Shown one piece after another: positions 44,172 to 64,000 of a stretch of DNA of 64,000 nucleotides. The stretch is from Planctomycetia bacterium (lineage in GTDB: Bacteria; Planctomycetota; GCA-002687715): the NCBI GenBank assembly GCA_005790545.1, contig SXUL01000036.1:80123-144122 (forward strand). Direction: 5' to 3'. Within the stretch, counting starts at the first letter, position 1. Each line of letters begins with the position of its first letter. Under the pieces are notes generated by a model. It saw only the letters and a program-made list of their open reading frames with translations. It searched no databases and was not told the DNA's origin. Both the position numbers and the translations under genes were made by a program.

Positions 44172-45471
44172 GGCCGCGTCACTGCGCCGCCACGCGGACT
44201 ATGACCGGGTGAAGGCCGCGCCTTCGGTACATGCGCGCCTGCATCAACTGGGCGAACGCGAGCTGAGAGAGGAAGCAAGAAGACTCGGTCTTCAGCCGGA
44301 ACCACGCGCGCCTCGCGAACAATGGGTGCAAGCCCTTGTCGCCCGTGAGCTCGCGGAAGAAGGGCTCCCTGTTGCGGACGGCATCATCGAAGTGTTGCCG
44401 CAGGGCTTCGGATTCCTCCGCAATCACGCGGTGGACTACATGCCCTCCAACGACGACATCTACGTGAGCCCCAGTCAGGTCCGACGCTTCGAGCTCCGGA
44501 CCGGGATGCACGTGGTCGGCGTGAAAAGAGCTGCAGAAGAAGGCGAACGTTTCACCGCTCTGCTCAGGATCGAAAGCGTGGACGGCACCGCGGCAGTGGA
44601 ATCGGGACCGCGCCCGCGCTTCGATGCGCTCACGCCCGTACATCCGCACCAGCGCCTCATTGTCGAACACGCAGCGGGCGCTCATGCGAGCAGGCTCATC
44701 GACATGTTCGCGCCGATCGGACTCGGCCAGCGCGCCCTCATCGTCGCACCGCCGCGTGCCGGCAAGACGCTGCTTCTGAAAGAGCTCGCCATCGGGCTCA
44801 AGGCCAACCAACCCTGGCTGCATCTCGTGATGCTGCTCGTGGATGAACGCCCCGAGGAAGTCACGGATCTGCGCCGCTCCGTTCCGGGTGAAGTCGTGAG
44901 CTCCACCTTTGACGCGACGCCGGAACGGCATTGTCATGTCGCACGCCTCGTGATCGAACGCGCACGTCGGCTCGTGGAACAGGGCCGTCATGTGGCCCTG
45001 CTGCTCGACTCCATCACGCGCCTTGCGCGTGCACACAACGCGGCCAGTCCGAATTCGGGACGCATTCTCTCGGGCGGCGTGGATGCAACCGCTCTGCAAA
45101 TGCCGAAGCGCTTCTTCGGTTCCGCCCGTGCCACCGAGGAAAAGGGTTCGCTCACGATGATCGCCACCGCGCTGACGGATACCGGCTCACGGATGGACGA
45201 AGTGATCTTCGAGGAATTCAAAGGCACCGGCAACTCCGAGATCGTGCTCGATCGCACCGCTGCCGAGAAACGGCTCTTCCCCGCGCTCGACATCCTGCGC
45301 ACGGGCACGCGCAAGGAAGACCTGCTCCTCGACCCGGAAGAAATGAAGCGCGTCACGGCGCTGCGCCGGGTCCTCGCCGGCCTGAAGCCCGATGAGGGCC
45401 TCGAACTCCTGCTGCAACGGCTGACGCGCACCCCCAACAACGCCGCCCTGCTGATGTCGATGGCGCTGTGA
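44062..45471 (+). CDS. rho: transcription termination factor Rho (extended N-terminus)
   Basis: 'GIIEVLPQGFGFLR', 'DIYVSPSQVRRFELRTGMHV', Walker A 'APPRAGKTLLLKELA', 'LVDERPEEVTDLRRSVPGEVVSSTFD', 'GSLTMIATALTDTGSRMDEVIFEEFKGTGNSEIVLDR'. These are essentially identical to the E. coli Rho motifs. Start may be an internal Met (about 44110) given the overlap with coaE. Confidence 0.92.
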   Translation: MARRPMADWDQKPEHAMEHGETEAEVEQTAEARHSAEAASLRRHADYDRVKAAPSVHARLHQLGERELREEARRLGLQPEPRAPREQWVQALVARELAEEGLPVADGIIEVLPQGFGFLRNHAVDYMPSNDDIYVSPSQVRRFELRTGMHVVGVKRAAEEGERFTALLRIESVDGTAAVESGPRPRFDALTPVHPHQRLIVEHAAGAHASRLIDMFAPIGLGQRALIVAPPRAGKTLLLKELAIGLKANQPWLHLVMLLVDERPEEVTDLRRSVPGEVVSSTFDATPERHCHVARLVIERARRLVEQGRHVALLLDSITRLARAHNAASPNSGRILSGGVDATALQMPKRFFGSARATEEKGSLTMIATALTDTGSRMDEVIFEEFKGTGNSEIVLDRTAAEKRLFPALDILRTGTRKEDLLLDPEEMKRVTALRRVLAGLKPDEGLELLLQRLTRTPNNAALLMSMAL

Positions 45472-48453
45472 TCAGCGCGCCGCAAGGTGCGCACGCCACT
45501 GTCCCGCACGTGCCGCGGACTCGGCATCCGTTGCGCGGAGCGGCAGAGCGACAAGATCCTTCAGCAAGGCGCGCGCGAGGGCGCGATCCGCTTCACAGCG
45601 CACCGGGCTCGAACCACGCTCCACCAGCAAGACCAGCGCGTCCAGCTGCGGGTCTGTGAATTCACGAGCCGTCAGCCACTGGACCTCGCGCTCAAGAGGC
45701 AGACCGAGCGCGCTCGTCGCATCCGCGAACCACTGGCTGCGCGCGGACTTGCCATGCACCTCGCTCCACTGCCGGAAAGCCTCGGTGCGCTTCGGCGGCG
45801 ACGCATCGCGGGGTGCCTGAAAGGTGAGCGCCTCGAGTGCGCGCTCCGCGGATTCATCGCCCTCGGGCGCCAGCAGGAGACGCGCCAGCAAGGGTTGCAG
45901 GGCCTCCTCGCAACCGAGCCGCGCCAAGGCCAGCGCTGCAGCGCGTGCGAGAGCGGGCTCCGCAGCAGCGAGCCACGGCAGAATCAACGGCTTCGCTTCA
46001 AGTCCGAGCGCGCGTTGCAACACGGAGACAGCGAGAATCTTCAGCTCCACATGATCCGCGTGCTCGAGGATGTCGCGAATGCGCGCCGTCGTCGCGGAAA
46101 AGGTCGCGAGGATCTCGAGCGCTTCCCGACGCTGCGGCAGATCGCCGGCTTCGCGCACGATGCCGTGCAGCGCTTCCGCTGCGCGCGCGCCACCCGCCGC
46201 GCTGAGGGCTTTCAGCACAGCCGCTCGCTCGGCGATGCCGCCGTCACGCCAACACTGCATGGCCCGCGCAACACCTTGCTCTCCCATCACCGTGCCGAGA
46301 GCTGCGATGGCGCGCACGCGCAAGTTGGCGTCGGTGCCGCTGACGAGGCGCTCGAGAAGATCCGGCGTCCTCGGGTCGCGCAGCGTCGCGAGGCCACCAA
46401 GACAGGCCGAACGCACGGCACTGTCTTCGTCCCGGAGACCAGCGAGCAGTTGCTCGGCAGCTCCTTCGCCACCCCGGCGACCGAGTGCGCCAGCCGCCGC
46501 TGCGCGCACAGACGCCGCATCGCTGGCGAGCGCCAGTCCGAGTTCTTCGCGTGGCAGGGCATCCGTCAATTGTGCGAGAAGGTCCGCTCCTTCGCGTCCG
46601 GTGACGCGCGCTGCGAGCACCAGCATTTCGAGCCTGGCCTTCGGCGCAGCGCGCACGATGACCGCCGCAGCGAGCATCCGCTCACCCGCACCCTCAAGGC
46701 CGCTGGCGAGCACGACACTCGCGAGTCTCTCCGAGGCCGAGCGCAGCCACGCCTCCGGCATGTGGGCAAGCACGCCCGCGGCTGTGACCCGCGCGCGCGC
46801 ATCCAGGCTGGAGAAACTCCCGGCCGCCAGTTCGGCGATGGCTTCCATGCGCCGGGCCCGATCCGTGATCGCGATGAGTTTCGTTCCTGTGCTCTGGAGT
46901 GCTTCGGCTCTCGCCGCGGGATTCTCTCCCGGCACAAAGCTCTGCCATGCGCGCTCGAGGCTGAGCCGCTCGGTCAGCTCGACGAGACGATTCAAGTCTG
47001 CGGATGGCTCGGGTGCCTCGATGCGTTGGAAGCGGGCTCGCGCGCCGGGCAACGCGACGATGAGGCGCCACTCGACTCCTTTGCGCCCGGCATCCTCGGA
47101 GAGACCGCGCTGGCCCAGCATGTTGCAAGCGCGCAGCAGCGCGGCGACCTCGGCACAGGCCTCCGGCTCCATCCAAGTACCACCCTCGCTGAGTGCGCGC
47201 AGCGCCACCGCGTCGAGATGCAGGGACCACTCGAGACGTCCGTCCCGGAAGCGCTGCAGACTGAGGCGCAAATCGGTTTCGGCTTTCGCATCCAGGACCG
47301 CGAGCGCGCGCTCGGCATGGAACACGGCTGCGTTGCCGGCCCACCAACGTTTCCACGCCAGTGCATCTGCACCGAATTGTCGCCCCGAAAGGCGCGCCAG
47401 TTTCCGCCACACGAGATTCTCGATGGTGGAGTAGTCGGGATAGAAGGTGCCTCCGGCCACGGCATCGATCAGGAGTGGCACGAGCAGCGTATCGGCGAGG
47501 CGACGATCCTCCTCCGCGGCCGATGCCCAGCACACATTCGTGAGCACGATGGCAGCGGAAGCGCGCAGGAATGGATCGCCGGATTTCAGCCAGGCGCTCA
47601 AACTCTCGCGCCGCGCCGCTTCCACCGGGAGCAGCGTGCCGCCGTGCAGGTCCTCGTCCTCGACGAGCGCGAGCAAGGCATGCGCGGCTTGACGCTGCGG
47701 CGCCGTGCGCGCGAGTTCCAGCAAGCGCACGCGCGCTGCCTCGACGCCGAGGCGACCGAGGTGCTGGACCGCCGTGGCAGCCACGACGGCTTCGGGATCG
47801 GCGAGTGACTCGAAAAACTCGCTGCGCTGTTCGCAGCCAGGAATGCGTCCGAGCAGATCGAGGGCGGTTGCGCGCGCGGGACTGCGCTTGCTCTGAAAGA
47901 GGGCCAGCACGGTCGGGAGATGCTCTTCCTCGAGTCGCGCAGGGAGAGCGCGCGCGGCACTCTGACGCACACGCGCCGAGCCGTGGCTGAGCATGGGCAG
48001 GACGACAGCCGTGCCAACCTTCGCATCGATGCGCACGAGCGCGGCCATGAGGTCGGGCAGCCCGGCGCGGTTGCTCGGGTCCGCGATGGCGAGACGGAGC
48101 GGCTGCACGGCCGAGGCTTCGCGCATCTCTCCCAGCACCCACGCGGCGCCCGATTGCACACGCCAGTCGTTGTGCTGGAGAGCGCTGACGAGTCGAGGCA
48201 CCACTTCCCTGCCGAGCCCCGAGAGCACCAGCGCCGCTTCACGCGCACCCGCCTGAGGCCACTGGGCAAGACGCGCGAACAAGTCCCCGACGGGATCACG
48301 CGCGGGTTGTGCAACGGCAGTACCGCTCGTCGCCGGAGCAGGCTTCTCCTGAGTTTTTTCGGCCGGCTTCGGGCGCACTGGCGGCGGCGAGAAGACGGGG
48401 TCCTGCGCACCCAGGAACATCCCGATGAGAGAGACGAGCAGCATTGAACGCAT
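45472..48453 (-). CDS. large secreted HEAT-repeat (PBS lyase HEAT-like) protein, 993 aa
   Basis: Signal peptide (MRSMLLVSLIGMFLGAQD). Over ten recurrences of the '...VR..A..ALG.LG...A...L...L.D.D..VR..A..AL' HEAT-like unit across the whole length. Confidence 0.6.
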   Translation of the reverse strand: MRSMLLVSLIGMFLGAQDPVFSPPPVRPKPAEKTQEKPAPATSGTAVAQPARDPVGDLFARLAQWPQAGAREAALVLSGLGREVVPRLVSALQHNDWRVQSGAAWVLGEMREASAVQPLRLAIADPSNRAGLPDLMAALVRIDAKVGTAVVLPMLSHGSARVRQSAARALPARLEEEHLPTVLALFQSKRSPARATALDLLGRIPGCEQRSEFFESLADPEAVVAATAVQHLGRLGVEAARVRLLELARTAPQRQAAHALLALVEDEDLHGGTLLPVEAARRESLSAWLKSGDPFLRASAAIVLTNVCWASAAEEDRRLADTLLVPLLIDAVAGGTFYPDYSTIENLVWRKLARLSGRQFGADALAWKRWWAGNAAVFHAERALAVLDAKAETDLRLSLQRFRDGRLEWSLHLDAVALRALSEGGTWMEPEACAEVAALLRACNMLGQRGLSEDAGRKGVEWRLIVALPGARARFQRIEAPEPSADLNRLVELTERLSLERAWQSFVPGENPAARAEALQSTGTKLIAITDRARRMEAIAELAAGSFSSLDARARVTAAGVLAHMPEAWLRSASERLASVVLASGLEGAGERMLAAAVIVRAAPKARLEMLVLAARVTGREGADLLAQLTDALPREELGLALASDAASVRAAAAGALGRRGGEGAAEQLLAGLRDEDSAVRSACLGGLATLRDPRTPDLLERLVSGTDANLRVRAIAALGTVMGEQGVARAMQCWRDGGIAERAAVLKALSAAGGARAAEALHGIVREAGDLPQRREALEILATFSATTARIRDILEHADHVELKILAVSVLQRALGLEAKPLILPWLAAAEPALARAAALALARLGCEEALQPLLARLLLAPEGDESAERALEALTFQAPRDASPPKRTEAFRQWSEVHGKSARSQWFADATSALGLPLEREVQWLTAREFTDPQLDALVLLVERGSSPVRCEADRALARALLKDLVALPLRATDAESAARAGQWRAHLAAR

Positions 48454-48521
48454 GGAAGCCTCGACTCCAGTTCCGAAAACCGCGTGGGGATCACCAGTCT
48501 ATGGGCGCGGGTGCAGCAGCA

Positions 48522-49016
48522 TCAAGGCGCACCCAGCCAGCCGGAGACACGCAACTGTCCGTCCGGGTCGGGGTTGACGCGCAGACTCACGGCCACGCCG
48601 CTCTTGGCCACCAAGCGGACAAGGAATCCGCCCGGATCGATGCCGAGTTGTGCCAGCCGCCGCACGGCGGATTCGGCGTCGAGTTCCTCTCCGCGCGGCC
48701 AGTGGCCTGCATGCAGTTGGCGGCCCGTGAAGGCCTCCACACGATCGGCCATGCGGCCTGCGCGAGCGATCTCCGCGATGTGGCCTGGCAGGTTCTGACG
48801 CAGTTCCTCCGCACTCTCCCAGTCGCGCGTGAGCATGCGAAAAGGCGGCATGCAATGGGAGAGCGCCGCTTCCGCATCGGCATCGATGCACGCCTTCACG
48901 AAGGCTGTCGCCTCAGCCTCTGCAGAGCGCGCGCGCGCGGTGTCGAGGGCTGATTCCTCGTCCGCGCAGGAGAGCACGAGGGTGAAAAGAAGACAGAGCA
49001 CGGCTGCACGTCGCAT
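48522..49016 (-). CDS. hypothetical lipoprotein
   Basis: 164 aa. Lipoprotein signal 'LCLLFTLVLSC'. No family. Confidence 0.4.
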   Translation of the reverse strand: MRRAAVLCLLFTLVLSCADEESALDTARARSAEAEATAFVKACIDADAEAALSHCMPPFRMLTRDWESAEELRQNLPGHIAEIARAGRMADRVEAFTGRQLHAGHWPRGEELDAESAVRRLAQLGIDPGGFLVRLVAKSGVAVSLRVNPDPDGQLRVSGWLGAP

Positions 49017-49058
49017 GGGCCCATTCTCTGCGGCTCCTGCGCTCCGGTCCAGCCGGGT

Positions 49059-51149
49059 TCACAGGGCGTCTTGCGGCCGGAACTCCGGACTGACCGCGCT
49101 CTGCAACGCCATGAGGTAGTCACGCGCGTCCGCATCGCCGGCCGCGAGGACCTTTGCCGCCGTGCTGCGCGCCAGATCCAGCAGCCTGTCCTCGCGCACG
49201 CGGGCAACGCGGAGCACACCGCCATGGCCAGCCTGGCGCACTCCGAGGACCTCACCCGGACCACGTTGTGCGAGATCCGCATCGGCCAGCCGAAAGCCGT
49301 CCCGTTCGCGCACGAGGGTTTCCATGCGTTGCAGGGCCTCCGGCTTGGCCCCTGCACCCGGCACGATGTGACAAGTACCGGCCTTCGCACCACGCCCCAC
49401 GCGACCGCGCAACTGATGCAGCGTCGCGAGACCATGCCGCTCCGCGCCGAGGATGACCATCTGGGTGGCCTCAGGCACATCGAGCCCCACCTCAACCAAC
49501 ACCGTGGCCAGCAACACGAGCGTCTGACCCGTGCGAAAACTCTCGAGGCCTGACTGCCGCTCTTCCGCCGTCTGGGCTCCGTGCACCATCGCGACGGGAA
49601 TCCCCGCCAGTTCGCGCCGCTGCCAGCGCACACCTTCGCGCACGAGCGCGGGAACTCCTGCGGCCGTGATGGCGGGAAAGACGACGAATGATCGTTCGCC
49701 GCGCGCCGCCGCTTCACGCACCGCAGCGAGTGCCTCCTCCACATTGGCGAGGCGCGTGGTCAGTCCGGCCCGCCCCGGCGGCATGCCCGCGAGTTGCGAG
49801 CGCGGCAGATCACCGAGCAAGGTGAGCATGAGCGTGCGCGGAATGGGTGTCGCGCTGACAGAAAGCGCGTGCACGGCCACGCCCATTTTCACCGCCGCCA
49901 GTCGGTTGCGCACTCCAAAGCGCTGCTGTTCGTCGATGACGACCAGACCCAGCCGTTTCCCGTCGAGCTTCGCTCGCAGTACGGCGTGAGTGGCGGTGAT
50001 GATGTCCGCCTCGGCGAGCTCGCGGGCCCGCGCAGCGCTGCCGCCGGTCTTCAGCGCGAGCTTCACCCGCGACCCCTTGAGCCAGCGCACGAGCAGTTGG
50101 TGGTGCTGTTCTGCGAGTTCCTGCGTGGGCGCGAGAAAAATCACGCTCCGCCCCGCCGCTACCGTTGCGAGCGCCGCAGCCACAGCCACCGCGGTCTTGC
50201 CGCTGCCCACGTCCCCCTGCAGGACGCGCCGCATCGGGCGCGTGACTTGCATGTCGGAGAGAATCTCATCCAGCACAGTGCGCTGACCGGCAGTAAGGGC
50301 GAAGGGCAGGCGCGCATCGATCCGGGCCGCGATCTTCTGCGAGACCCTGATCTCTGGGGCAAGAGCTGCGGCCCCGCCCGTCCCCAGCGCCACCAGCAGA
50401 GCGACGAACCGGTCGAACAGCAGACGCTCCATTCCTGCATCGGCCTCAGTTTCCAGGACAGGCTCATGCACGCGCCGGAAGGCCAGACCGAGCGGCAACA
50501 TCTCGGCGCCGATCCAGGCTGCGAGCGGATCAGGAAGATCCAGTTGCAGCGCTTGGTGAATCAAACCGCGCAGCGTGCCTGCCGCGAGTCCCGGGATGGT
50601 CGGCCAGCGCGGATGCAGGGTTTGCAGTGCGCGCGCCAGCTCTTCGTCACTGCCGACGACCTGACAGCGCTCGATGACGAACGGCTCCTCGGCAGCGCTT
50701 GCGCCGCGCCCGGTGAGGAGCAGTTCCGTGCCGGGCGGCCATGAGAGATTGCTCCCTCCACGTCCGTACCAACGCGCCCTGAGACGGCCCTCCTCTGAGC
50801 GCAATGTCAGCTCGAGGAATCCCCCGCGCCGTCCGCGCATCCTGCCGGTTCGCACACGTTCCAGTACCGCCGTGAAAGCGCACAGCCCGGCCACGGGCCG
50901 CGGCACCAATTCCGGCGTTCGCGCGTAGCCAACGGGAGTGACCAGCAGGAGCTCGAGAAGCTGATGGATGTCCGCCGCAGCGAGACACTTCTCACGCTCG
51001 GGACCAATGCCCTTCAGGCCGGAGAGTGGCGCGAGAAGGCTCGTCACGGCAGGGCATCGAGCGAGCGGACGATGTCCGCCACATCGAGACCGTAAGCACG
51101 CAGGCACGTCGCGAGTGCATCCGACTCGGCCACCACGCAGCGCGTGCAA
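49059..51149 (-). CDS. recG: ATP-dependent DNA helicase RecG
   Basis: N-terminal wedge domain ('LSGLKGIGPEREKCLAAADIHQLLELL...P..Y'), helicase motifs 'LQGDVGSGKT', 'VIDEQQRFGV', 'SATPIPRT', 'QLRGRVGRG'. Exact start uncertain: ATG 51149, or GTG about 51047. Confidence 0.9.
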   Translation of the reverse strand: MHALRGGRVGCTRDVPACLRSRCGGHRPLARCPAVTSLLAPLSGLKGIGPEREKCLAAADIHQLLELLLVTPVGYARTPELVPRPVAGLCAFTAVLERVRTGRMRGRRGGFLELTLRSEEGRLRARWYGRGGSNLSWPPGTELLLTGRGASAAEEPFVIERCQVVGSDEELARALQTLHPRWPTIPGLAAGTLRGLIHQALQLDLPDPLAAWIGAEMLPLGLAFRRVHEPVLETEADAGMERLLFDRFVALLVALGTGGAAALAPEIRVSQKIAARIDARLPFALTAGQRTVLDEILSDMQVTRPMRRVLQGDVGSGKTAVAVAAALATVAAGRSVIFLAPTQELAEQHHQLLVRWLKGSRVKLALKTGGSAARARELAEADIITATHAVLRAKLDGKRLGLVVIDEQQRFGVRNRLAAVKMGVAVHALSVSATPIPRTLMLTLLGDLPRSQLAGMPPGRAGLTTRLANVEEALAAVREAAARGERSFVVFPAITAAGVPALVREGVRWQRRELAGIPVAMVHGAQTAEERQSGLESFRTGQTLVLLATVLVEVGLDVPEATQMVILGAERHGLATLHQLRGRVGRGAKAGTCHIVPGAGAKPEALQRMETLVRERDGFRLADADLAQRGPGEVLGVRQAGHGGVLRVARVREDRLLDLARSTAAKVLAAGDADARDYLMALQSAVSPEFRPQDAL

Positions 51150-51319
51150 GGCAGCCCGCGTGCTTCGAGAAACTCCGCCGCACCGAGCCGTGCAGCGAGC
51201 ACATCCATGACGCGCATGGAGGGGGTGATTTCCGGACGTTCCGCAGTTGCTTCGGCGGCCATGACGCCAAGGTTGTGCGCCACGGCCTCTCCGGTCAAGC
51301 GCGTGATAGGCTGCGCCAC

Positions 51320-52639
51320 ATGTTGCACGCCAGCGCCTCCCTTGCCATGTGCTGCATCGTCGGAGCTCTCGCGCTCGCTCAGGCTCCCGATCCCAAGCGT
51401 GTTGCGGCCGCAGAGGAAGCTCTCACTCGGGCGCGCGAAGCCCTTGCCACGAGCTACGAGTCGCTGGAAGCCGAATTGAAAACGGGCGGAGAGCGAGTGA
51501 AGAGTCTCCTCCTTGCGGAGCTCCGTCCCGTCGCTGACAACTGGCGCAACGCCACCGCACCTCAGGTCATCAAGCTCCTCGGCGAAGGTCGAAAAAAACT
51601 ACTCTCTCTCGCGCGACATGACGACCGCAACCTCGCTGAACTCGCAGCCTGGATGGCGCAACGGTTCAACGGCCTCGTGCAGGAAAAGGGTGCTGCTCTC
51701 GCAAAGGAATCCACCGAGGACTTGTGCGGCATGCTCCTGAGCCCGCTGCTGGACAGCCGCGCTTTCCACGAACGCTGGAATGCCGAACTCGCGCCGCTCC
51801 TTCCTTCCGCCGAGGTCTGGCGCAAGGCAACTCTCGATCTCGAAGGACTGCGCGAGGCGGCCGAGGTCGCCAAGGACCCCTCGCGCACCTTCCGCCGCGG
51901 CGCCCCGGCAGGCTTCGCACGCATCCCGGCGGGCACCTACAGCACGATCTTCAGTGGCGGTTTCTCCGGACAAGGAGTGCGAAAAAAAGACCGCCCCTTC
52001 GTGCTGGGGCACGACCTCTTCCTCGGCGTCGATGAGGTCACCCAAGCCGAATACCTCGCGTGGATCCTGAGCCTGAGTGAGGAGGAGCGTCGCCTGCACC
52101 AGCCTCGCGATGACAGTGGCAAGCCGCGCTGGGAAGCTGCAGAGGGAACGGGAGTGCTCGCTCTCGTGCCCGGCTCGGAGAAACTGCCGGTGACGGGCAT
52201 CACACTCGCAAGCGCCATCGCATTTGCGAACGCCAACGGTGCGCGCCTGCCCACAGAAGAGGAATGGTGCGCCGCCGCTTCCGGCAAGGAACGCTTCGCG
52301 TACCCGTGGGGCGCGCGCTACGACAAGGGGCGTTGCAACGATCGCGACGGCGGTCTTGGTGCTCTCGCTCCGGTCGGCTCGTTCGCGGGCGCGCGAGGCC
52401 CCTTCGGCCACAATGACCTCGCAGGCAATGCCTCCGAGTGGACCCTCACGCTCGAATCCGGCAAGGTCCTGGAACCCGGCGCCGAACCACAGGAAAACGT
52501 TGTGGTCCGCGGAGGCTCATTCAAGAACAGCGGCGCGGATGTGACGACCGGCTGGGTCTGGTTGAAACGCGCGGTGGGTGACCGCGACACAGAGACCGGT
52601 TTCCGACTCCTCATCGATCCTGCGGCGAAGGCTCGCTGA
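51320..52639 (+). CDS. formylglycine-generating-enzyme (FGE/SUMF1)-family protein with N-terminal helical region
   Basis: Start at Met 51320 with signal peptide (MLHASASLAMCCIVGALALAQA). C-terminal about 250 aa carries FGE-sulfatase domain hallmarks ('ARLPTEEEWCAAASG', 'YPWG', 'GNASEWT', 'RGGSF'). Divergent from recG. Confidence 0.65.
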   Translation: MLHASASLAMCCIVGALALAQAPDPKRVAAAEEALTRAREALATSYESLEAELKTGGERVKSLLLAELRPVADNWRNATAPQVIKLLGEGRKKLLSLARHDDRNLAELAAWMAQRFNGLVQEKGAALAKESTEDLCGMLLSPLLDSRAFHERWNAELAPLLPSAEVWRKATLDLEGLREAAEVAKDPSRTFRRGAPAGFARIPAGTYSTIFSGGFSGQGVRKKDRPFVLGHDLFLGVDEVTQAEYLAWILSLSEEERRLHQPRDDSGKPRWEAAEGTGVLALVPGSEKLPVTGITLASAIAFANANGARLPTEEEWCAAASGKERFAYPWGARYDKGRCNDRDGGLGALAPVGSFAGARGPFGHNDLAGNASEWTLTLESGKVLEPGAEPQENVVVRGGSFKNSGADVTTGWVWLKRAVGDRDTETGFRLLIDPAAKAR

Positions 52640-52662
52640 GGCGCTGTACGCCTCGCACCCCG

Positions 52663-53274
52663 TCACGCGCGGCGTTGAACCAGCACGGCGAAATCCGTGT
52701 CGTCTTCGGCCTCGAGGCGCTGCGGCGTGGCCCCTTCGAGTGCCAGTGACTCTCCGCTCTTGAGCTGCAGGCGCTTTCCTTTCACTTCCACCGCCAGCGC
52801 GCCGTGGTGCACCACGATGGTCAAGGCGTGCGCCACCCCGAATTCCGGCGCTACCGCGACCGAGCCACGGCGGCCCTCACCGAGGAGAAGCTCCGTCTGA
52901 CCTTGCTGCACGCCCCTGAAGTGGAATGCCCCGGCGCGCAGTTCGCGCGTCTGCTGCACGTTGGTCTCCGTGCGTTCTGCGAGGGACAGCAGACCGAAGG
53001 TGCTGATGCCGAGTCCCTCGGCGATGCGATCGAGGGTGTCGAGGTTGGGCTTGATGAGGTTGGTTTCGATGCGCGAGATGGGCGCATACGAAAGCCCGCA
53101 GGAGCGCGCGAATTTCTCGATGGTGAGGCCCTTTTGTTGGCGCAGCGTGCGGATGACGCTGAAGTCATAGCGTCGGCGGACCTCGTGGGCGCGCTGGTGC
53201 CTGGCGATGACCGAATTCGATTCTTCTGCGACGAGTTCGTCGCCCGTTTCTGAACGCGAAGACTGCGTGGCCAT
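52663..53274 (-). CDS. XRE-family HTH transcriptional regulator with C-terminal cupin domain
   Basis: HTH_3 'IRTLRQQKGLTIEKFARSCGLSYAPISRIETNLIKPNLDTLDRIAEGLGIS'. C-terminal beta-rich cupin-like segment. Start at Met 53274 preferred (MATQSSRSE...). Last gene of the minus-strand microcompartment cluster. Confidence 0.65.
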   Translation of the reverse strand: MATQSSRSETGDELVAEESNSVIARHQRAHEVRRRYDFSVIRTLRQQKGLTIEKFARSCGLSYAPISRIETNLIKPNLDTLDRIAEGLGISTFGLLSLAERTETNVQQTRELRAGAFHFRGVQQGQTELLLGEGRRGSVAVAPEFGVAHALTIVVHHGALAVEVKGKRLQLKSGESLALEGATPQRLEAEDDTDFAVLVQRRA

Positions 53275-53375
53275 GACGGGCCTCCCTCTTGAAGCGGCAG
53301 GCGCTGCCTCAACAGCCCTATCGGGTGTGGCCCGAACCCGTCTTGCGATCAACTCCGGTTCGGGAGGAGTATTCT

Positions 53376-54629
53376 TCAGTGATCGAGAACAACGATCACG
53401 GATTCGCCCACATCAGGGTTGCCCTCGGCCGCACGCAAATGCACCGCGCGGAGGGATTCGATGGCGCCGAGAATCTCGTCGGCCACCCGTTGTGCGGGAG
53501 GGAGCAAGAAGACTTCCCAGCCTTGTGGAGGCTGAGGACGCACTGCATTGGCAGTCCACTCGAGCTTGCCCCGACTGGCCGCGGCAAGCAGTGCCGTCTC
53601 CATCGTTTGCAGCGGCTCCGCGCGCTGAACGAGCAGCGCGCGCACAGCCTCGATCGCAGCGGGCCCTTCAGCCACATAGAGGCGCCGTGTCTCGCTGCCG
53701 CGTACTGCTCCCGGTTCGGAAACCGCGCGCTTCGCCACCAGTTGCGCCTTCGTGCTGGGGACATCGGCATCCAGCGACTCCACGCTGAGGCCACGACCGG
53801 GCTTGCCAGCGCCATCGATCACGGAGATAGCGGCGCGTGCGTCTGCAACGAACGACTCGAAGGCGCGCGCACCGGATGCCACCGCTGCGTTGCAACGTGC
53901 GAGTTCGCGCTCGGACAGCGTCCGCTCGGGCGTAGCTGGCTCTGGAATGCTCTCGGCCCGTGCACGCTCCTGGATGAGTCCCGCTTCGCAGGAAAAACGC
54001 ACACTCAGGCCGTCGTCCGTGGTTCGGCGCGGCAGCGTGAACGCGCGCGTGAGCATCGGCGCGCCAACCAGCGGAGCATTCTTGCGACGCAGGCCTGCGT
54101 GCGGTGCGCGCTTCTCGTCCGCTTCTTGATGGGCGTCCTGTTGCCGCGCGCCGTCAACACCAACTCCGCCTCCGGGGCTGTCCTCGGCAAGGCGGCCAAG
54201 GTCTTTGCTCCTCCCCTCTGTCGTGAGCGTCTCTCCCTGACCGGCTTCCGACCCCTCGGCAGTCACGCTCGGCGCAGGATCACCTGTCCATTCCGAGGGG
54301 CGTGACAGGAGCTCCACCACCCAACTTGTGAGTCCGACCACTGCGACGAGCACCGCAGCCCTCCGCAGCAGCGGGAAATAAGGGAAACGGCGACGCGCCG
54401 GGCGCAGCGCTCCCTGAAGGCGTCGAACCACGTCATCCGCAACAGGCGGGATGGCAGCCCTCCTGAGCTCCGCGCGCTGGCGCGCAAAGGCGCTGCTTGC
54501 GCTCCGACACGCCGCGCAATCGGTCAGATGCTGCTCGAGACGTGCCGCGTCCGCGGCATCCAACCGGCCATCGAGCGCAGCGCTCGAGAGCTCGCGGAAG
54601 GGCTCGCACGGATGCTCTTTCATGCGCAC
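53376..54629 (-). CDS. membrane-spanning anti-sigma factor (zf-HC2 type) with large C-terminal extracytoplasmic domain
   Basis: N-terminal 'HLTDCAACR' zinc-finger anti-sigma motif, one TM helix (AAVLVAVVGLTSWVVELL), then about 290 aa periplasmic region. Overlaps the ECF sigma gene stop by a few nt (translational coupling). Confidence 0.65.
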   Translation of the reverse strand: MRMKEHPCEPFRELSSAALDGRLDAADAARLEQHLTDCAACRSASSAFARQRAELRRAAIPPVADDVVRRLQGALRPARRRFPYFPLLRRAAVLVAVVGLTSWVVELLSRPSEWTGDPAPSVTAEGSEAGQGETLTTEGRSKDLGRLAEDSPGGGVGVDGARQQDAHQEADEKRAPHAGLRRKNAPLVGAPMLTRAFTLPRRTTDDGLSVRFSCEAGLIQERARAESIPEPATPERTLSERELARCNAAVASGARAFESFVADARAAISVIDGAGKPGRGLSVESLDADVPSTKAQLVAKRAVSEPGAVRGSETRRLYVAEGPAAIEAVRALLVQRAEPLQTMETALLAAASRGKLEWTANAVRPQPPQGWEVFLLPPAQRVADEILGAIESLRAVHLRAAEGNPDVGESVIVVLDH

Positions 54630-55189
54630 TCTCCCGAGAGCAGTTGGCGCAATCTCTCGCGCGCGCGAAAGAGCCGCGAGCGCACTGTGCCGGGCGGGAT
54701 TTCGAGAATGAGTGCGATGTCCTCGTAGCTCCGGTCATCAATGTCGCGCAGGATGAGAATGGCGCGCAGTTCCTCGGGCAACTCTCGGAGTGCGTTCAAG
54801 GCGCGGCCGTGCTCCTCTTGCAACATGAGCGATGCACCGGCGTCCTCCGTCACAGCGGGTTCGGGATGATCCGTGGGACCGTCGCCGAGAGTTTGGGTCA
54901 CATTCGGGCGGGCCTTGCGCGCGCGCGCCGCGGACACCACTGTGTTGTGCCCAATACGGCAGAGCCACGTCGAAAAACTGCTCTCGGAGGTGAAGCTCGC
55001 GAGCCCCCTGAAGGCCTTGAGCCAGGTCTCCTGACAGAGGTCGAGAGCGAGTTCGGGGTCGCGGGTCATGCGCAGAATGAAGGCGTGCAAGCGATCGGCA
55101 TGGAGTTTCACCAAGGCCGTGAATGCCTCCTCCGACCCCTGCTGCGCGGCCTTCAGGAGTCCCGCTTCAGAGTGGATTGCGTCACCCAA
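54620..55189 (-). CDS. RNA polymerase sigma-70 factor, ECF subfamily
   Basis: 189 aa. Region 2 'FTALVKLHADRLHAFILRMTRDPELALDLCQETWLKAFRGLASF' and region 4 'LPEELRAILILRDIDDRSYEDIALILEIPPGTVRSRLFRARERL'. Confidence 0.85.
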   Translation of the reverse strand: MGDAIHSEAGLLKAAQQGSEEAFTALVKLHADRLHAFILRMTRDPELALDLCQETWLKAFRGLASFTSESSFSTWLCRIGHNTVVSAARARKARPNVTQTLGDGPTDHPEPAVTEDAGASLMLQEEHGRALNALRELPEELRAILILRDIDDRSYEDIALILEIPPGTVRSRLFRARERLRQLLSGECA

Positions 55190-55228
55190 TCGGCATCCCT
55201 TCGACGCCTGCCAACCGGCCAGGTTCCG

Positions 55229-55504
55229 TCAGCAGCGCACGAGGTCGATACGGTTGGGGCGCGTCTTTGCCACCAGCCATGTCGTGGATGAACCGCCTTC
55301 CCGGTCGGGCCAGCGCAACGCCTTCAGCCCCTTCTTGAAGCGCGCTTCTCCGGGCTGAATGGAAACTTCCGTCTCTTCTTCGCGAATAACCGCGTAGCGG
55401 AAGCGGATGGAGTCATCATCCGTGGGGCCGAACCAGGTGAAGTTCGCCGCGGCCGAATCTGACTTCGGATCAGGACCGAGATGGGGCTTGAAGCCTGCGT
55501 TCAT
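55229..55504 (-). CDS. hypothetical small protein (91 aa) inside the microcompartment gene cluster
   Basis: ORF with high third-position GC consistent with local coding. Sits between the last shell gene and the ECF sigma gene on the same strand with 21 and 39 bp spacers. No similarity recognised. Confidence 0.35.
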   Translation of the reverse strand: MNAGFKPHLGPDPKSDSAAANFTWFGPTDDDSIRFRYAVIREEETEVSIQPGEARFKKGLKALRWPDREGGSSTTWLVAKTRPNRIDLVRC

Positions 55505-55525
55505 GGAGAGTCTCTTGCGGCTCGA

Positions 55526-56128
55526 TCAGCCGCTCACGAATTCCGAGAAGGGGTTGACCGGATCCTCGAAGGCCTGACGCAGGCGCTGATCGGGATTCGG
55601 AATCACCACGGAGTGCCGATGATAGCCACGCTCGCGCGCAAGGCGCGTGCCTGAATCGACGGCCGCTTCCACATCACTTTGTGCACCAGCAAGAGTCACG
55701 AAGGCGTTGCCGCCGAGCCCCATGCCAAGCCGAATTTCGAGGAGACGTACGGCGGCGCATTTGGCCGCGCCGTCCGCTGCAAGCAAAGCGGCGCAGAGAC
55801 TGGTCGTCTCGATGATGCCCACCGATTCGCGCACCGGTTCCGCCTTGCGTCCGCGGAGGACTCGCACGAGATCCGGGTGAGGCTGCGCGAGAAAAAGTGA
55901 ATCGCGGAGTTCATCACGCGCCGCCGCGGCGCCGGCACCGAGAGCCTCACGGACGGCCTCCACACTGCCGCTGAAGAGCGCGATGAAACGACCGGGCGTG
56001 ACCGGCCGCAAGGCCAGCACCTCCACGGTCGCCTCTTTCAGCACTGCATCCGCGGCGAGAAGCCCTCGGGCAACGCTCTCCCACTCGAGCATGCCGAGGG
56101 GCTTCGTATGCGGACGCACGCGCTCCAC
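55526..56128 (-). CDS. bacterial microcompartment shell protein, tandem BMC-domain (BMC-T), PduT-like
   Basis: Two BMC (PF00936-type) domains: 'LGMLEWESVARGLLAADAVLKEATVEVLALRPVTPGRFIALFSGSVEAVREAL' and 'VGIIETTSLCAALLAADGAAKCAAVRLLEIRLGMGLGGNAFVTLAGAQSDVEAAV'. Cys in the second domain at a position comparable to the PduT Fe-S ligand. Confidence 0.8.
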   Translation of the reverse strand: MERVRPHTKPLGMLEWESVARGLLAADAVLKEATVEVLALRPVTPGRFIALFSGSVEAVREALGAGAAAARDELRDSLFLAQPHPDLVRVLRGRKAEPVRESVGIIETTSLCAALLAADGAAKCAAVRLLEIRLGMGLGGNAFVTLAGAQSDVEAAVDSGTRLARERGYHRHSVVIPNPDQRLRQAFEDPVNPFSEFVSG

Positions 56129-56131
56129 AGA

Positions 56132-57121
56132 TCACCTGCGGCGGCGAGGCCGCTTCAGAGAACCGGCACCGGTATCGCCGCTCGAAGGTGCATCCCAGAC
56201 GATTTCGAAGGACTCGTCCGCGCGGGTACTGGCCGCTGGGGCCTCAGAGCGCGGAGCTGGAGTCGATGCAGGCGCCGGAGCAGGCGCTGGTTCCGGCAGG
56301 GTGCGCGCTGGTTCATCCCACACGGGGATGAAGTCAGGTTCTGGCGGCGCTTCGGGAGCCGCACTCGGAGCGGATGCCGCGACATTCGGTTCACGTGCAT
56401 CCTCGCCACGCGGTGCAGGACCACGCTCGCTGCCGAAGCGGTCGCGGCCACGGCCACGGCGTCCACGGCGGTCACCACGCTCCTCACGCGGTCCACCCTC
56501 GCCGCGTTCTTCGCGCGGCCCATTCACGCCACGCTCTTCACGGGGTCCGCGGTCTTCGCGCGGCCCGCGGTCTCCACGCTCCTCACGGGGAGCACGGTCT
56601 GCGCGCGGCCCGTTATCGCCGCGCCCTTCGCGCGCCCCGCGGTCGCCACGTTCCTCACGAGGCCCACGCTCTTCGCGCGGACCGCGATCATCGCGCTCGC
56701 GCCCTGCATCGCGGCCGTCTCTCGGTCCGCGTCCACCACGCTCGCCTTCGGGCTCGCGTTGAGAGCCTTCCTGCCCGAAGCCTCTTTCGGCTGCCCGTGG
56801 CGCCACCGCGATGCCGCGACGTCCAGCAGGCATCTCGGGCACTTCGTCTCCGCCATCCTCCGCCGGTGTCATGAAGCAACTCACCACGCCTACAGCGGCG
56901 CCAGCGACCGGCAGGTCCTTCGGCAGATCGAAACGATCGCCAAGGGGTGCGAGGGCCACGAGCACCAGATCTCCGGCACCTGCACCCGCGCGGTCGACAA
57001 CCACGAGTGCGCCGGTCCACTCCACCTCATGCTCGGGTTCAACGAGCAGGAATCTCAGGCCTTCGAAGGCCGGGTGGACCTTCGCCAATTCGACTTCACA
57101 CTGCACTGTTCCGATGAACAC
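56132..57121 (-). CDS. bacterial microcompartment vertex protein (BMC-P, EutN/CcmL/PduN fold) fused to about 240-aa low-complexity repeat tail
   Basis: Residues 1-85 'MFIGTVQCEVELAKVHPAFEGLRFLLVEPE..GALVVVDRAGAGAGDLVLVALAPLGDR...AAVGVVSCF' match EutN/CcmL. This is followed by about 10 nonamer repeats (GPREERGDR and variants), two 'F-x-VWD-x-P' motifs and a poly-Arg C-terminus. Confidence 0.75.
   Translation of the reverse strand: MFIGTVQCEVELAKVHPAFEGLRFLLVEPEHEVEWTGALVVVDRAGAGAGDLVLVALAPLGDRFDLPKDLPVAGAAVGVVSCFMTPAEDGGDEVPEMPAGRRGIAVAPRAAERGFGQEGSQREPEGERGGRGPRDGRDAGRERDDRGPREERGPREERGDRGAREGRGDNGPRADRAPREERGDRGPREDRGPREERGVNGPREERGEGGPREERGDRRGRRGRGRDRFGSERGPAPRGEDAREPNVAASAPSAAPEAPPEPDFIPVWDEPARTLPEPAPAPAPASTPAPRSEAPAASTRADESFEIVWDAPSSGDTGAGSLKRPRRRR
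56390..56760 (-). repeat. imperfect 27-nt tandem repeat array (about 10-12 units) inside the BMC-P gene, encoding GPREERGDR nonamers
   Basis: Plus-strand units recur with 27-nt period, e.g. 'cacgctcctcacgcggtccaccctcgc', 'cacgctcttcacggggtccgcggtctt', 'cacgctcctcacggggagcacggtctg', 'cacgttcctcacgaggcccacgctctt'. Confidence 0.7.
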
Positions 57122-57137
57122 GTTCGTCCTTCCTGAA

Positions 57138-57767
57138 TCACCGATTCTCGCGGCCCGAGATGGACTCCAGAGCCACAGTCACTGCCTTCACCGCCTCCCG
57201 GATCGCGGATTCCGTTCCGCCGAGATAGAGCCTTCCGAATGCACCGGAGGACTGCATCTCGATCAATTTGACGGGAGCGGCCTTTTCCGCCTCGTTGGCG
57301 GCAATGGTTGCGTAGGCGGCGGGGTGAACCTCCAGAATGTAGAGGGTCTCGCCGCCGAGGATCATATCGCCGAAACGGATGCGGTTGATGAGCTGGGCCT
57401 GGTCGGGGTCGAGGTTGGTGATGATCTGCGAACTCATCACGCGCGGGCGCAGCCGATCCTCTTCCTTGAGGCCGAGGCTCGCGAGCATGCGCGCTCCTGC
57501 CTCGCGCACCTCAGCCTGTGAGTCCGAGTGAAGCTCCAGAAGCCCGAAGGCCCGCTCCACCACCTGCAAACCGGGACGCACATCATTGCTCTTGAGCGCG
57601 ATATCGGTGAGCCGGTTGATCGCGATGCCCGGAGCCACTTCGACAAAAAGCGAGGCCTGACCTTGCACCGGCAGGAATCCTCGCGCGGTGGTTCCCACGT
57701 AGGCCGCGAACGCGGGCTGCATGCTGTCGAGGAAGGTGTACGCCCTGAGTTCGATGCCCGCGGACAT
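57138..57767 (-). CDS. bacterial microcompartment shell protein, permuted tandem BMC-domain (BMC-T, PduB/EutL-like)
   Basis: 209 aa with two circularly permuted BMC units. 'APGIAINRLTDIALKSNDVRPGLQVVERAFGLLELHSDSQAEVREAGARML' parallels PduB '..GVLMADTALKSANVEVV......ILVISGDSGAVRQAV..'. The second unit is 'GETLYILEVHPAAYATIAANEAEKAAPVKLIEMQSSGAFGRLYLGGTESAIREAVKAV'. Confidence 0.65.
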   Translation of the reverse strand: MSAGIELRAYTFLDSMQPAFAAYVGTTARGFLPVQGQASLFVEVAPGIAINRLTDIALKSNDVRPGLQVVERAFGLLELHSDSQAEVREAGARMLASLGLKEEDRLRPRVMSSQIITNLDPDQAQLINRIRFGDMILGGETLYILEVHPAAYATIAANEAEKAAPVKLIEMQSSGAFGRLYLGGTESAIREAVKAVTVALESISGRENR

Positions 57768-57781
57768 GGGCAGTGGAGCTC

Positions 57782-58075
57782 TCAGACTTCGCCGTCGCCT
57801 TCAGGCTGCGGCAGGATGGACTCGACCTGTTCGTGCGGACGCGGAATGACGTGCACGCTCACAAGCTCTCCGACGCGACGCGCGGCAGCGGCGCCGGCAT
57901 CGGTGGCAGCTTTTACTGCACCGACTTCGCCGCGCACCATCACGGTGACGTAGCCGCCACCGATCTTCTCCTTGCCGATGAGGGTCACCTGTGCGGCCTT
58001 CACCATGGCGTCGGCAGCCTCGATGGAACCCACGAGTCCGCGGGTCTCGATCATTCCCAGTGCGATCTTGCTCAT
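57782..58075 (-). CDS. bacterial microcompartment shell protein, single BMC domain (BMC-H, PduA/EutM/CcmK-like)
   Basis: '[81 protein letters not shown]' is near-consensus PF00936. Confidence 0.92.
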
Positions 58076-58120
58076 CGTCGCAGCACCTCAAGCGGGGGCA
58101 GCTCGCCCGCGCGCCACGCA

Positions 58121-59635
58121 CTATCCTCCCCGCTCCGCGCCAGCCGACAAGCCCCGCGGCCCGTTTCCCGCCCGGCGTTCCAAAGCCGCGCGGATGATGG
58201 CTTCCAATTCAGCCGGAGAATGGTGTTCGCCGGGCATGCGCGCCAGGGGGTCCCCAAGCAGGCTCGGGCGTTCCAAGGCAGCCGCTTTCTCGGGCTGGGG
58301 CCAGGGTGAACCGGCTACGGAGGATGCAGGCGTTGCCAACTGGGGCCAATCCGAGAGCGTGTCCCCCTTCCTCCACGCCGCATTCGCCCGCGCCAGGCGC
58401 TTCACGTTGATGAGGTGCTGAGGCCCCACGTTGTCGGAAGTGATATTGCCTCCAAAGGAGCCACAGCCGAGAGTCATCGAAGGAAAGAGCCCGCTGGCTG
58501 CCCCCACGGCACCGAGGGATGTCGGCGCATTCAGGATGATGCGATTCACCGGCTTCTCGAGGGCGAAGGCCCGGATGATGGCCTCATCGCAGCAGTGCAG
58601 GCCGAGCGTGTGCCCTCGTCCGCCGAGCGCAAGAATATCGATGCAGAGCCGGCAGCCCGCCTCGTGCCCATCCACGGCATAGAAGGCAAGCACCGGCGCC
58701 AACTTCTCATACGAGAGTGGATGGCCCGGCCCGAGCCCCGCTGCGCGCGCAACCAACACGGTGGTGGCCTCGGGCACGCGGAAGCCGGCCATGGCGGCAA
58801 TGCGCGCCGCGGACTGCCCGACGACATCGGGATTGGTGCCGCCGTCACGCGCGAGGATGCGCTCGAGCAGAGGCGTTTCTTCAGCCGAGAGCAGATGCAC
58901 ACCACGCGCCACGAGTTCGCGCAGCAACGCTTCTTCTACCGGCCGGTCGCAAACGATGGCCTGCTCGGAAGAGCAGATGGTGGAGTTGTCGAAGGTCTGG
59001 CTGGTGACGATGGCGCGCGCAGTCTCCGCGATATCGGCAGAACGGTCGACATACACCGGCACATTTCCGGGGCCCACGCCAAAGGCCGGTTTGCCGGATG
59101 AATACGCCGCACGCACCAGGCCCGAGCCGCCGGTCGCGAGAATGAGATTCACTTCGCGGTCGTGCATCAAAGCCTGAGTGCCTTCGAGAGCCACATGCTC
59201 CATGCAGAGCGCCCAATCCTCGGGAGCCCCGGCAGCGACGGCAGCATCGTGCGCCACACGAATAGCCTCAGCGATGCACTGCTTCGCGCGCGGATGCGGC
59301 GAGGCCACCATGGCATTGCGCGACTTCAGGCAGCAGATGGCCTTGTAGAGCGCCGTACTCGTGGGATTCGTCACGGGGATGATGGCCGCCACCACTCCGA
59401 AGGGTGCGGCGATTTCCATCACGCCGCGTTCCTTGTCCTCGCTCAGCACTCCGCACGTGCGCATCCCGGCGATGGCTTGCCAGAGTCCTCGCGTCGCAAA
59501 GCGGTTCTTCACCGTCTTGCTCTCGACCCGCCCCATGCGCGTTTCCTCGACAGCCAGCGCGGCGAGACGCGCACTGGCTGCGTGCCCCGCTTCCACCACT
59601 GCGGCCGCGGCGCGATCGATGGCCTCCTGATCCAT
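58121..59635 (-). CDS. CoA-acylating aldehyde dehydrogenase (EutE/PduP family) with C-terminal linker plus probable encapsulation peptide
   Basis: Start at Met 59635 ([18 protein letters not shown]...) preferred. The ATG at 59830 would overlap the divergent peptidase gene. Catalytic Cys in '[14 protein letters not shown]'. NAD/CoA-binding '[12 protein letters not shown]', '[13 protein letters not shown]'. C-terminal Pro/Ser-rich linker then amphipathic helix '[18 protein letters not shown]'. Confidence 0.9.
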
Positions 59636-59823
59636 GTGCTGGAGGCGGAGGAAGGCGCGGCGTGCGCGAGCCGCCCGGTCCCGGGCATCCGCGATGGACA
59701 GGAGATCCTTGTGTCCGTTTTCCGCCACGCGTCGATCCGCCGCGAGTCTACCAGTGCAACGCTTTCCGGCGCGCGAGGGCCGGGCTATCGTCGGCGCCGC
59801 ATGTTGCTCATGGAGATCCGCCG
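59636..59823. promoter_or_regulatory. divergent intergenic region between the microcompartment operon (minus) and the M16 peptidase gene (plus); candidate promoters
   Basis: 188-bp non-coding gap between two divergently oriented start codons. On the minus strand it contains 'GGAAAGCGTTGCACTGGTAGACTCG' (GGAAA-N16-GACTC), loosely resembling an ECF-type -35/-10. Speculative. Confidence 0.3.
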
Positions 59824-62532: not shown

Positions 62533-62792
62533 AGCTCTGCCTTCTTCTCCTGGCGCGGCCCGCAAACGCCGTGCGCTGCTTGTGGCGGGGGATCGCTCTA
62601 CGCGGCACTGCGCCGCCTGCGCCGTGAGTGGAGTCCCGCTGAGCAGTGCCTTCGAGTGCATCCGAGCGGCTCTGCGAAGCGGGATCACCCCCGAACAGAG
62701 CAGGCGTCACACCCGCGCTGCGGTTGATGGCAGACCTCCACGCTGCGCCGCCTGCGCGCTGCTCGCGACGGGGGCGTGCGCGTCACTGGCGC

Positions 62793-63902: not shown

Positions 63903-64000
63903 CGCTCCTCGGGATGCACACGCACGAGCGCTTCGAGCGCCGCGGCCACGAGTGGCGCCGCGTCGGCGCCCTTGTCATGCGTGTGTGCGCGTACCGCCGC
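63893..64000 (-). CDS. 3' end of an upstream minus-strand gene running off the window (possibly the rodA partner mrdA; unverified)
   Basis: Open reading frame on the minus strand from the window edge ending with TGA at 63893-63895. It overlaps the rodA start region (TTGGTGGTGA), suggesting translational coupling. Only about 35 codons visible. Confidence 0.3.
   Translation of the reverse strand, partial: AAVRAHTHDKGADAAPLVAAALEALVRVHPEERWW

Follow-up and report, generated by a model that had tools for sequence, protein, structure and literature searches.

This analysis concerns a regulatory gene cluster at the 3' end of a bacterial microcompartment (BMC) operon, carried by a 64,000-nucleotide stretch of planctomycetal DNA (contig SXUL01000036.1 of assembly GCA_005790545.1), here called the window. 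The cluster consists of an RpoE-like extracytoplasmic function (ECF) sigma factor, an anti-sigma factor of the zinc-binding anti-sigma (ZAS) type and a transcription regulator that joins an XRE helix-turn-helix (HTH) to a cupin domain. The sequence features favour, with moderate confidence, an autoregulated sigma/anti-sigma pair with a promoter of its own, whose operon probably continues into the XRE-cupin gene and which lies 3' of a shell operon driven by the housekeeping sigma factor. The window has 65% G+C and its nearest relatives are uncultured Planctomycetota. Nine minus-strand genes share one orientation from position 59728 down to 52663, beginning with an aldehyde dehydrogenase gene (AldDH) and ending with the XRE-cupin gene, after which a convergent FGE-sulfatase gene closes the array. 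A preliminary description had placed ECF sigma, zf-HC2 anti-sigma and XRE-cupin genes beside a microcompartment operon, and all three were confirmed where it had put them, on the minus strand. It had also proposed that the sigma factor positively autoregulates the whole operon at the AldDH promoter. This second claim found no support, the sigma gene having a predicted internal promoter.

The evidence for that promoter comes from the 39-nt gap upstream of the sigma gene (55190-55228), one of the two places in which the preliminary description had suggested searching for an ECF-type motif. The gap is filled by a perfect GGAAC-N16-CGTC match (55203-55227, minus strand), a predicted ECF-type promoter that starts 1 nt past the stop codon of the preceding gene, a conserved orphan of 91 aa, and leaves 13 nt to the sigma start codon. 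The pattern GGAACN{15,18}CGTC has this single match in the 64-kb window against 3.3 expected and is not significant by count; its significance derives from position and conservation. The core GGAAC-N17-GTC precedes the ECF gene by no more than 60 nt in some 16 related loci (L083, L001, L002, L003/L085 with TGAAC, L004, L005, L086-L089, L008 and L169-L172), with the same spacing and with spacers unrelated in sequence, and L039 carries an N18 version. A core match within one 60-nt upstream stretch has a chance of about 1e-3 (from 2.35 expected per 128 kb). The core has a single further match in the window, antisense within dxs. When a position weight matrix (PWM) was built from these sites, each locus gave a lone outlier of 19-30 bits, the next best score being at most 16 bits. 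Two of the loci with the motif (L086 and L171) have no shell genes. A Shine-Dalgarno-like (C/G)AAGGAG starts 1-2 nt past the -10 GTC, and the distance from the GTC to the start codon is 12-15 nt, both in the window (55190-55203) and in relatives, so that transcripts from this promoter would be nearly leaderless.

A different signal precedes the operon itself. The AldDH start was set to GTG 59728 by homologue alignment and two independent public gene calls, which corrects the upstream intergenic region from the 59636-59823 first given to 59729-59823. Regular-expression and PWM scans of the window and of about 12-14 loci detected no GGAAC-N17-GTC-like site upstream of AldDH or of any shell gene, so the second search that had been suggested for an ECF motif came out negative in every locus. 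The same region holds a predicted sigma-70-type promoter of the microcompartment operon, unique in the window (59745-59759, minus strand), in which TTGCAC is followed by the extended -10 element TGgTAGACT, 16 nt before the AldDH start codon. In relatives the same -10 position reads TAGAAT, TACATT, TAGAGT, TACACT or TAGGAT. The upstream elements are TTGCAA-N16-TACATT in L087 and TTGCAA-N16-TAGAGT in L088, and a promoter scanner returned TTGTCG-N17-TAGAAT in L002 and TTGCCG-N18-TAGAAT in L003 as sole hits in about 8 kb each. Because a conserved ECF motif stands before the sigma gene and none before AldDH, the sigma gene is taken to have its own internal promoter.

The tight, co-oriented packing of the regulatory genes with the shell genes, which had been noted before, holds. 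The gaps on the two sides of the orphan gene measure 21 and 39 nt, and no terminator was predicted on the way from the shell genes to the sigma gene, nor to either side of the 39-nt gap. The immediate upstream neighbour of the sigma gene is the orphan and not a shell gene. A strong terminator together with an independent promoter at this point had been named as what would speak against a common operon. An independent promoter is now predicted, and the terminator was not found: three terminator-like hits were obtained against 4.7 expected, all within coding sequences. The gap before the sigma gene gave a fold z-score of 0.26, the z-scores over the gaps tested being -1.3 and 0.26, and neither an Rfam family nor a structured RNA or stable hairpin was found in the gaps.

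The sigma factor (189 aa, TTG start, 54620-55189, minus strand) was assigned by Pfam, NCBIfam and PDB sequence matches and by gene calls. It matches Pfam Sigma70_r2 (2e-16) and Sigma70_r4_2 (3e-18; also r4), and regions 3 and 1.1 are absent, as expected for group IV. Its score against the sigma70-ECF superfamily model TIGR02937 is 96 bits, with a cut-off of 42.9. The nearest solved structures in a PDB sequence search are AlgU, RpoE, SigH, SigW and SigE, the best matches being 6in7, 8z6g and 1or7. The ECF gene is directly followed by the anti-sigma gene in all orthologous loci. Independent gene calls place the anti-sigma start at ATG 54623, so that it shares the 4 nt ATGA with the end of the sigma gene, in agreement with the translational coupling described earlier; the overlap recurs in most orthologues.

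The anti-sigma factor (415 aa, 53376-54623, minus strand) is composed of a ZAS-type N-terminal domain, a predicted transmembrane (TM) helix, a low-complexity linker and a lineage-specific C-terminal part of about 230 aa. The zf-HC2 match (8.5e-9) covers residues 8-42, with the putative zinc ligands C6, H32, C36 and C39. A single hydrophobic helix spans residues 89-107 and is preceded by RRRF...RR; the topology, with one TM helix and an extracytoplasmic C-terminal part, is predicted from this hydrophobic segment only. The predicted extracytoplasmic part is indeed large, as previously stated, and amounts to about 308 residues beyond the helix instead of about 290. An extracellular cue for the anti-sigma factor would follow from this predicted topology alone. 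The domain search that had been proposed for the C-terminal part returned nothing known: the extracytoplasmic region has no domain match in Pfam, NCBIfam or PDB sequence searches. One close homologue of the whole protein was found among 5.8 billion proteins, and an exhaustive HMMER search with the C-terminal 230 residues retrieved three real relatives among 1.84 billion representatives. An AlphaFold model of this region, made from a two-sequence alignment, had a pLDDT of 37 and was unusable.

Across 11 orthologues, the anti-sigma factors share an architecture and not a sequence. All have an N-terminal anti-sigma domain and one predicted TM helix, followed by 280-540 residues that are mostly variable and rich in Ala, Pro, Gly, Arg and Glu. 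The last 90 or so of these residues form a weakly conserved module with a hydrophobic strand at its end. The protein diverges much faster than its neighbours, with 63% identity between the window and L083 against 82-100% for all flanking genes. Of the 11 orthologues, 5 carry the HxxxCxxC motif and two others retain CxxC pairs only; L002, L003 and L008 have no such motif. Since the motif has been lost in several orthologues, the conserved input of the predicted sensor is unlikely to be zinc or the redox state.

The third gene of the cluster encodes the XRE-cupin regulator (203 aa, 52663-53274, minus strand). Its start was placed at ATG 53274, which has GGGAGG ahead of it, and not at TTG 53352, leaving a gap of 101 nt after the anti-sigma gene. 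The N-terminal half matches HTH_3 (7e-12). The match to Cupin_2 reaches 19.3 bits, under the Pfam cut-off of 27.2; the cupin half is nonetheless confirmed by PF07883 in homologues, by an AlphaFold model (pLDDT 87.5) and by Foldseek, whose top hit is the HTH_3-cupin regulator 1Y9Q, followed among others by HppE and many cupins. Against the NCBIfam PuuR model the protein scores 30 bits over residues 42-189 with a cut-off of 211, which places it outside the PuuR equivalog. The canonical metal-binding histidines of cupins are not conserved in it. The family comprises 87 detected homologues, all from Planctomycetota where the source is named, and is confined to this locus type among 88 loci examined.

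In four relatives (L086-L088 and L172), the XRE-cupin gene has a strongly conserved predicted promoter, TTGnnn-N16-TACAAT, ahead of it. In the upstream region of these loci a block of 15 nt, CTATACAATTGTCAA, is kept near-perfectly although the proteins are only about 45-60% identical; it lies at about 9860-9885 in L086, 10000-10025 in L087, 9895-9920 in L088 and 8893-8918 in L172. The core of the block is a palindrome, ACAATTGT, which overlaps the TACAAT -10 element and is likely to be an auto-operator of the XRE-cupin gene. The palindrome is absent from the window and from AldDH promoters, and its occurrences are limited to XRE promoters in a single subclade. K-mer counting and a palindrome search for an operator shared by the regions upstream of AldDH and XRE yielded only GC-rich background. 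A SIR2-family deacetylase gene lies between the anti-sigma and XRE-cupin genes in one lineage (L003 14127-15167, L085 9185-9958).

Comparison of related loci indicates which of these genes travel together. A species-level genome scan with the BMC-T(dp) shell protein returned 80 loci. The full order (AldDH, BMC-H, BMC-T(dp), BMC-P, BMC-T(s), the orphan in some cases, ECF, anti-sigma and XRE) is found in L003 to L005, while the L002 sequence ends before the XRE position. Linkage of the shell genes with the ECF/anti-sigma pair was seen in about 11 related loci. The pair lies directly upstream of the XRE gene in all nine contexts inspected, which were those of the anti-sigma homologue and of eight XRE homologues with 44-52% identity; for this reason the trio of sigma, anti-sigma and XRE-cupin genes is a stable, tight unit, and the compartment cassette is separable from it. 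Thus, in L086 and L171 the slot holds no shell genes and the trio comes after rodA and an AA-kinase gene; in L171 it is in turn followed by FGE, recG, HEAT and rho. Conversely, L006 keeps the shell genes and the XRE gene and lacks the pair. In L001 (the Baikal-deep-G176 metagenome-assembled genome, the closest species-level relative in the genome scan), the gene order is the same, but the ECF gene in the region 12640-13500 is interrupted by an in-frame stop and a frameshift, and only about the first 45 and last 20 codons of the anti-sigma gene remain; GGAAC-N16-CGTC, the shell genes and the XRE gene are intact. The damage to this pair could reflect recent decay or an assembly error. In L169 (5753-6178) and L170 (6242-6661), a rhodanese gene on the opposite strand parts the shell operon from the ECF gene, which makes the two separate transcription units in these loci. 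A metagenome scan with the ECF profile gave, among the matches listed, one orthologue (L089) and 79 generic ECFs without nearby homologues of the shell genes or the trio.

The regulators are absent from the sister lineages L007 and L009-L016. The slot after BMC-T(s) holds an ACT-domain gene in L009 (6149-6985), L011 (11969-14111) and L013 (12429-14335), where no ECF/anti-sigma pair is present; a DUF711 gene follows it in L011 and L013. These ACT-domain and DUF711 genes may represent an alternative accessory or regulatory module.

The wider neighbourhood is conserved as well. A syntenic block, which covers approximately positions 45000-64000 of the window and recurs in L001, L083, L085, L088, L171 and L172, is kept down to about 30% PBP2 identity. 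On the upstream side it contains mreBCD-pbp2-rodA, with or without an M16 peptidase gene, and on the downstream side FGE-sulfatase, DUF1858, recG, a HEAT-repeat protein of about 1000 aa, rho and coaE. As the whole neighbourhood is syntenic, adjacency alone is weak evidence of function. Two loci, however, point to something beyond synteny. In L039, shell genes, ECF and zf-HC2 anti-sigma genes occur together outside the block, with VWA proteins and HflX upstream and SLT and riboflavin synthase downstream. In L008 the ECF falls outside the clade, yet it occupies the same position behind the same promoter motif. A neighbour-joining tree of the ECFs leaves the deep branches unresolved and places L039 near the clade and L008 away from it.

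Taken together, the features of the trio outline a possible mechanism. The N-terminal zinc domain of the anti-sigma factor would hold the sigma factor at the membrane until a signal acting on the extracytoplasmic part of about 308 aa, or on the Zn-thiol site, sets it free. The released sigma factor would then transcribe the sigma and anti-sigma genes, probably the XRE-cupin gene 101 nt downstream, and targets at other places in the genome. The shell operon would be transcribed separately by the housekeeping sigma factor, and in this genome its transcript would probably read through into the regulator genes, so that the module would have a higher basal level when the compartment is expressed. 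An active sigma factor would not by that alone switch the shell genes on. With promoters that appear to be separate, any control of the compartment by the module would be indirect, through the XRE-cupin regulator or satellite loci, or nonexistent. No cis-element, whether an ECF motif or a shared palindrome, ties either regulator to the shell-operon promoter in any locus scanned. A functional tie between trio and compartment is nevertheless plausible.

Several other explanations compete with this arrangement. It is very unlikely that the sigma factor drives the AldDH promoter, with the compartment induced by an envelope or extracellular cue through positive autoregulation of the whole operon. 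Such an operon would explain the shared orientation and close packing of the genes without a terminator among them, and why shell genes are followed by ECF and anti-sigma genes in the eleven or so loci mentioned, including L039 in its different neighbourhood. It is difficult to reconcile, however, with the lack of a GGAAC-N17-GTC-like site before AldDH, where secondary PWM hits stay at or below 16 bits against 19-30 for the sites before the sigma gene, and with the conservation there of a TTGnnn-N16-18-TAGAAT-like element. The rhodanese gene that splits the operon from the sigma gene in L169 and L170 also argues against it, as do the intact shell genes of L001 beside a sigma pseudogene and a largely deleted anti-sigma gene. 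Rather unlikely, too, is a sigma/anti-sigma pair that serves as a dedicated organelle regulator with its targets outside the window, such as a satellite locus with a signature enzyme, a BMC-P triplet or a substrate transporter; its input would be an extracytoplasmic substrate or aldehyde/electrophile stress at the Zn-thiol site.

A possible, if doubtful, alternative is that the trio and the cassette are mere neighbours, the trio acting as a general envelope or stress module in a conserved block with no regulatory link to the compartment. The synteny of the whole block down to about 30% PBP2 identity is consistent with this, and so is the RpoE/AlgU/SigW type of the sigma factor. Each partner also occurs without the other: the trio and its promoter motif persist without shell genes in L086 and L171, the shell genes persist in L006 and L001 where the pair is absent or decayed, and sister lineages fill the slot with an ACT-domain gene and DUF711. 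In the subclade of L086-L088 and L172, moreover, the XRE gene has its own promoter and a palindrome that AldDH promoters lack. What a chance neighbourhood accounts for less easily is the adjacency of shell, ECF and anti-sigma genes outside the block in L039, the possibly independent ECF at the same position in L008, the likely read-through in a window with no terminator, and the confinement of the XRE-cupin family to this locus type among the loci examined. It may also be proposed, tentatively, that local control of the compartment really lies with the XRE-cupin protein, as a PuuR-like ligand-sensing repressor or activator whose level is tuned by the sigma pair. The gene is kept wherever its position can be read, including L001 and L006 with their decayed or absent pairs, it has the full-length HTH-cupin architecture of ligand-responsive regulators, and the ECF promoter stands upstream of it without a strong terminator between. 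Against this proposal, no operator shared by the regions before AldDH and XRE was found, the XRE gene is retained in both genomes without shell genes at the site, and the cupin metal-binding histidines are not conserved.

The preferred reading, an autoregulated pair with its own promoter behind a separately transcribed shell operon, has to be set against several observations that weigh on the other side. Both promoters are predictions. A near-absent leader, as proposed for transcripts from the ECF promoter, would be unusual. The window version of the AldDH promoter has a badly spaced -35 element, and the promoter scanner reports nothing for it. The search for ECF-type sites covered 64 kb of the genome, and targets linked to the compartment are possible elsewhere. 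Finally, L039 and L008 hint at a real functional tie between trio and compartment.

The remaining genes of the array, all on the minus strand, belong to the compartment. The first encodes an acylating aldehyde dehydrogenase of 535 aa (58121-59728), identified by Pfam Aldedh and by the NCBIfam model for EutE-type acetaldehyde dehydrogenase (2e-161). Its C-terminal 85 aa or so (58121-58400) form a Pro/Ser-rich linker followed by a helix-like segment, resemble a C-terminal encapsulation peptide and contain no cysteines. It is followed by a BMC-H shell protein of 97 aa (57782-58075; Pfam BMC, 5e-30) and by a CcmP-like tandem BMC-T(dp) shell protein of 209 aa (57138-57767; NCBIfam CcmP, 2e-89, with precomputed CsoS1D_N and BMC domains). 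The BMC-P gene (56132-57121; Pfam EutN_CcmL) codes for a EutN domain in residues 1-80 and an Arg-, Glu-, Gly- and Pro-rich tail of about 240 aa. The tail contains GPREERGDRG-like repeats arising from 45- and 72-nt tandem DNA repeats at 56502-56714. Its length varies widely among relatives, and at the shell vertex it would be disordered and carry a high charge. The last shell gene encodes a PduT-like tandem BMC-T(s) protein of 200 aa (55526-56128; two Pfam BMC domains, 7e-37; NCBIfam PduT, 8e-33). Beyond this set, the 64-kb window contains no further BMC or EutN genes.

Between the shell genes and the trio lies the orphan gene (55229-55504, minus strand). Pfam, NCBIfam and PDB searches gave no family or structure match for its 91-aa product. 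Identity ranges from 44 to 96% across seven loci, with invariant W24, F25, P27, R34 and R36 and a C-terminal PxRIDL. Since it is kept in L006, which has no sigma/anti-sigma pair, and is missing from both loci without shell genes, the orphan goes with the compartment.

As the evidence stands, a well-defined ECF promoter motif, GGAAC-N17-GTC, and a conserved sigma/anti-sigma/XRE-cupin module have been found in an uncultured lineage of Planctomycetota, and the locus offers a worked example of why tight adjacency should not be taken as a sign of regulation where the surrounding block is broadly syntenic. If the pair were after all a dedicated regulator, it would make this the first case of a microcompartment under the control of sigma-factor switching. 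A true link would add sigma switching with a transmembrane sensor to AraC-type, two-component and similar modes of induction, and the cupin ligand and the anti-sigma sensor would provide a handle on the substrate of a cryptic planctomycetal organelle.

Known regulators of microcompartments include PocR and EutR, of the AraC family, and the two-component system EutV/EutW, all of which act at the operon's own promoter or leader. As in those systems, the regulator genes here lie inside or at the end of the organelle operon; they differ in being of another class and in having no cis-element at the shell-operon promoter. The compartment itself comes closest, among catalogued types, to MIC3, which has been described from Planctomycetes with AldDh, BMC-T(s), a CcmP-clade BMC-T(dp) and no obvious signature enzyme (Sutter et al. 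2021, PMC8217296, Supplementary Data 2). Compared by description, the window shares the AldDh, the BMC-T(s) and the CcmP-clade BMC-T(dp) with MIC3. It differs in having one BMC-H and one BMC-P, of which MIC3 has two each, in lacking a pfam04909 amidohydrolase, and in an AldDH C-terminal extension without the four conserved cysteines. The word sigma does not occur in those parts of the 2021 catalogue text and supplements that were consulted (PMC8217296), and no paper in the literature searched ties ECF sigma factors or XRE regulators to microcompartment loci. The adjacency of shell operon and trio is thus undescribed, and its parts are ordinary.

Each of these parts has well-studied counterparts. 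PuuR of E. coli and the Vibrio cholerae protein 1Y9Q likewise combine an N-terminal XRE helix-turn-helix with a C-terminal cupin barrel; the present regulator differs from them in its identity of about 18%, in scores far under the family cut-offs and in an extra N-terminal helix. The anti-sigma factor shares the zf-HC2 domain and HxxxCxxC with an upstream cysteine with the ZAS factors RsrA (of SigR), RshA (of SigH), RsiW (of SigW), ChrR and RslA. The spacing of its predicted zinc ligands C6-H32-C36-C39 is like that of RsrA, whereas its membrane anchor and the 308 or so residues outside are like RsiW and unlike RsrA. The closest parallels to the pair as a whole are RpoE/RseA of E. coli and AlgU/MucA of P. 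aeruginosa. The -10 element in RpoE/AlgU-type systems is TCtgA, and that of the predicted promoter is CGTC/GTC. In contrast to RseA and MucA, the anti-sigma factor described here has a zinc-finger N-terminus and an unrelated extracytoplasmic region. No RseB/MucB-like gene is present, and the conserved third member is the XRE-cupin gene. In all three systems the sigma factor has regions 2 and 4 only, the anti-sigma factor is a co-transcribed protein with a single membrane pass (in the present case by prediction), and a GGAAC-type promoter stands ahead of the sigma gene, implying autoregulation.

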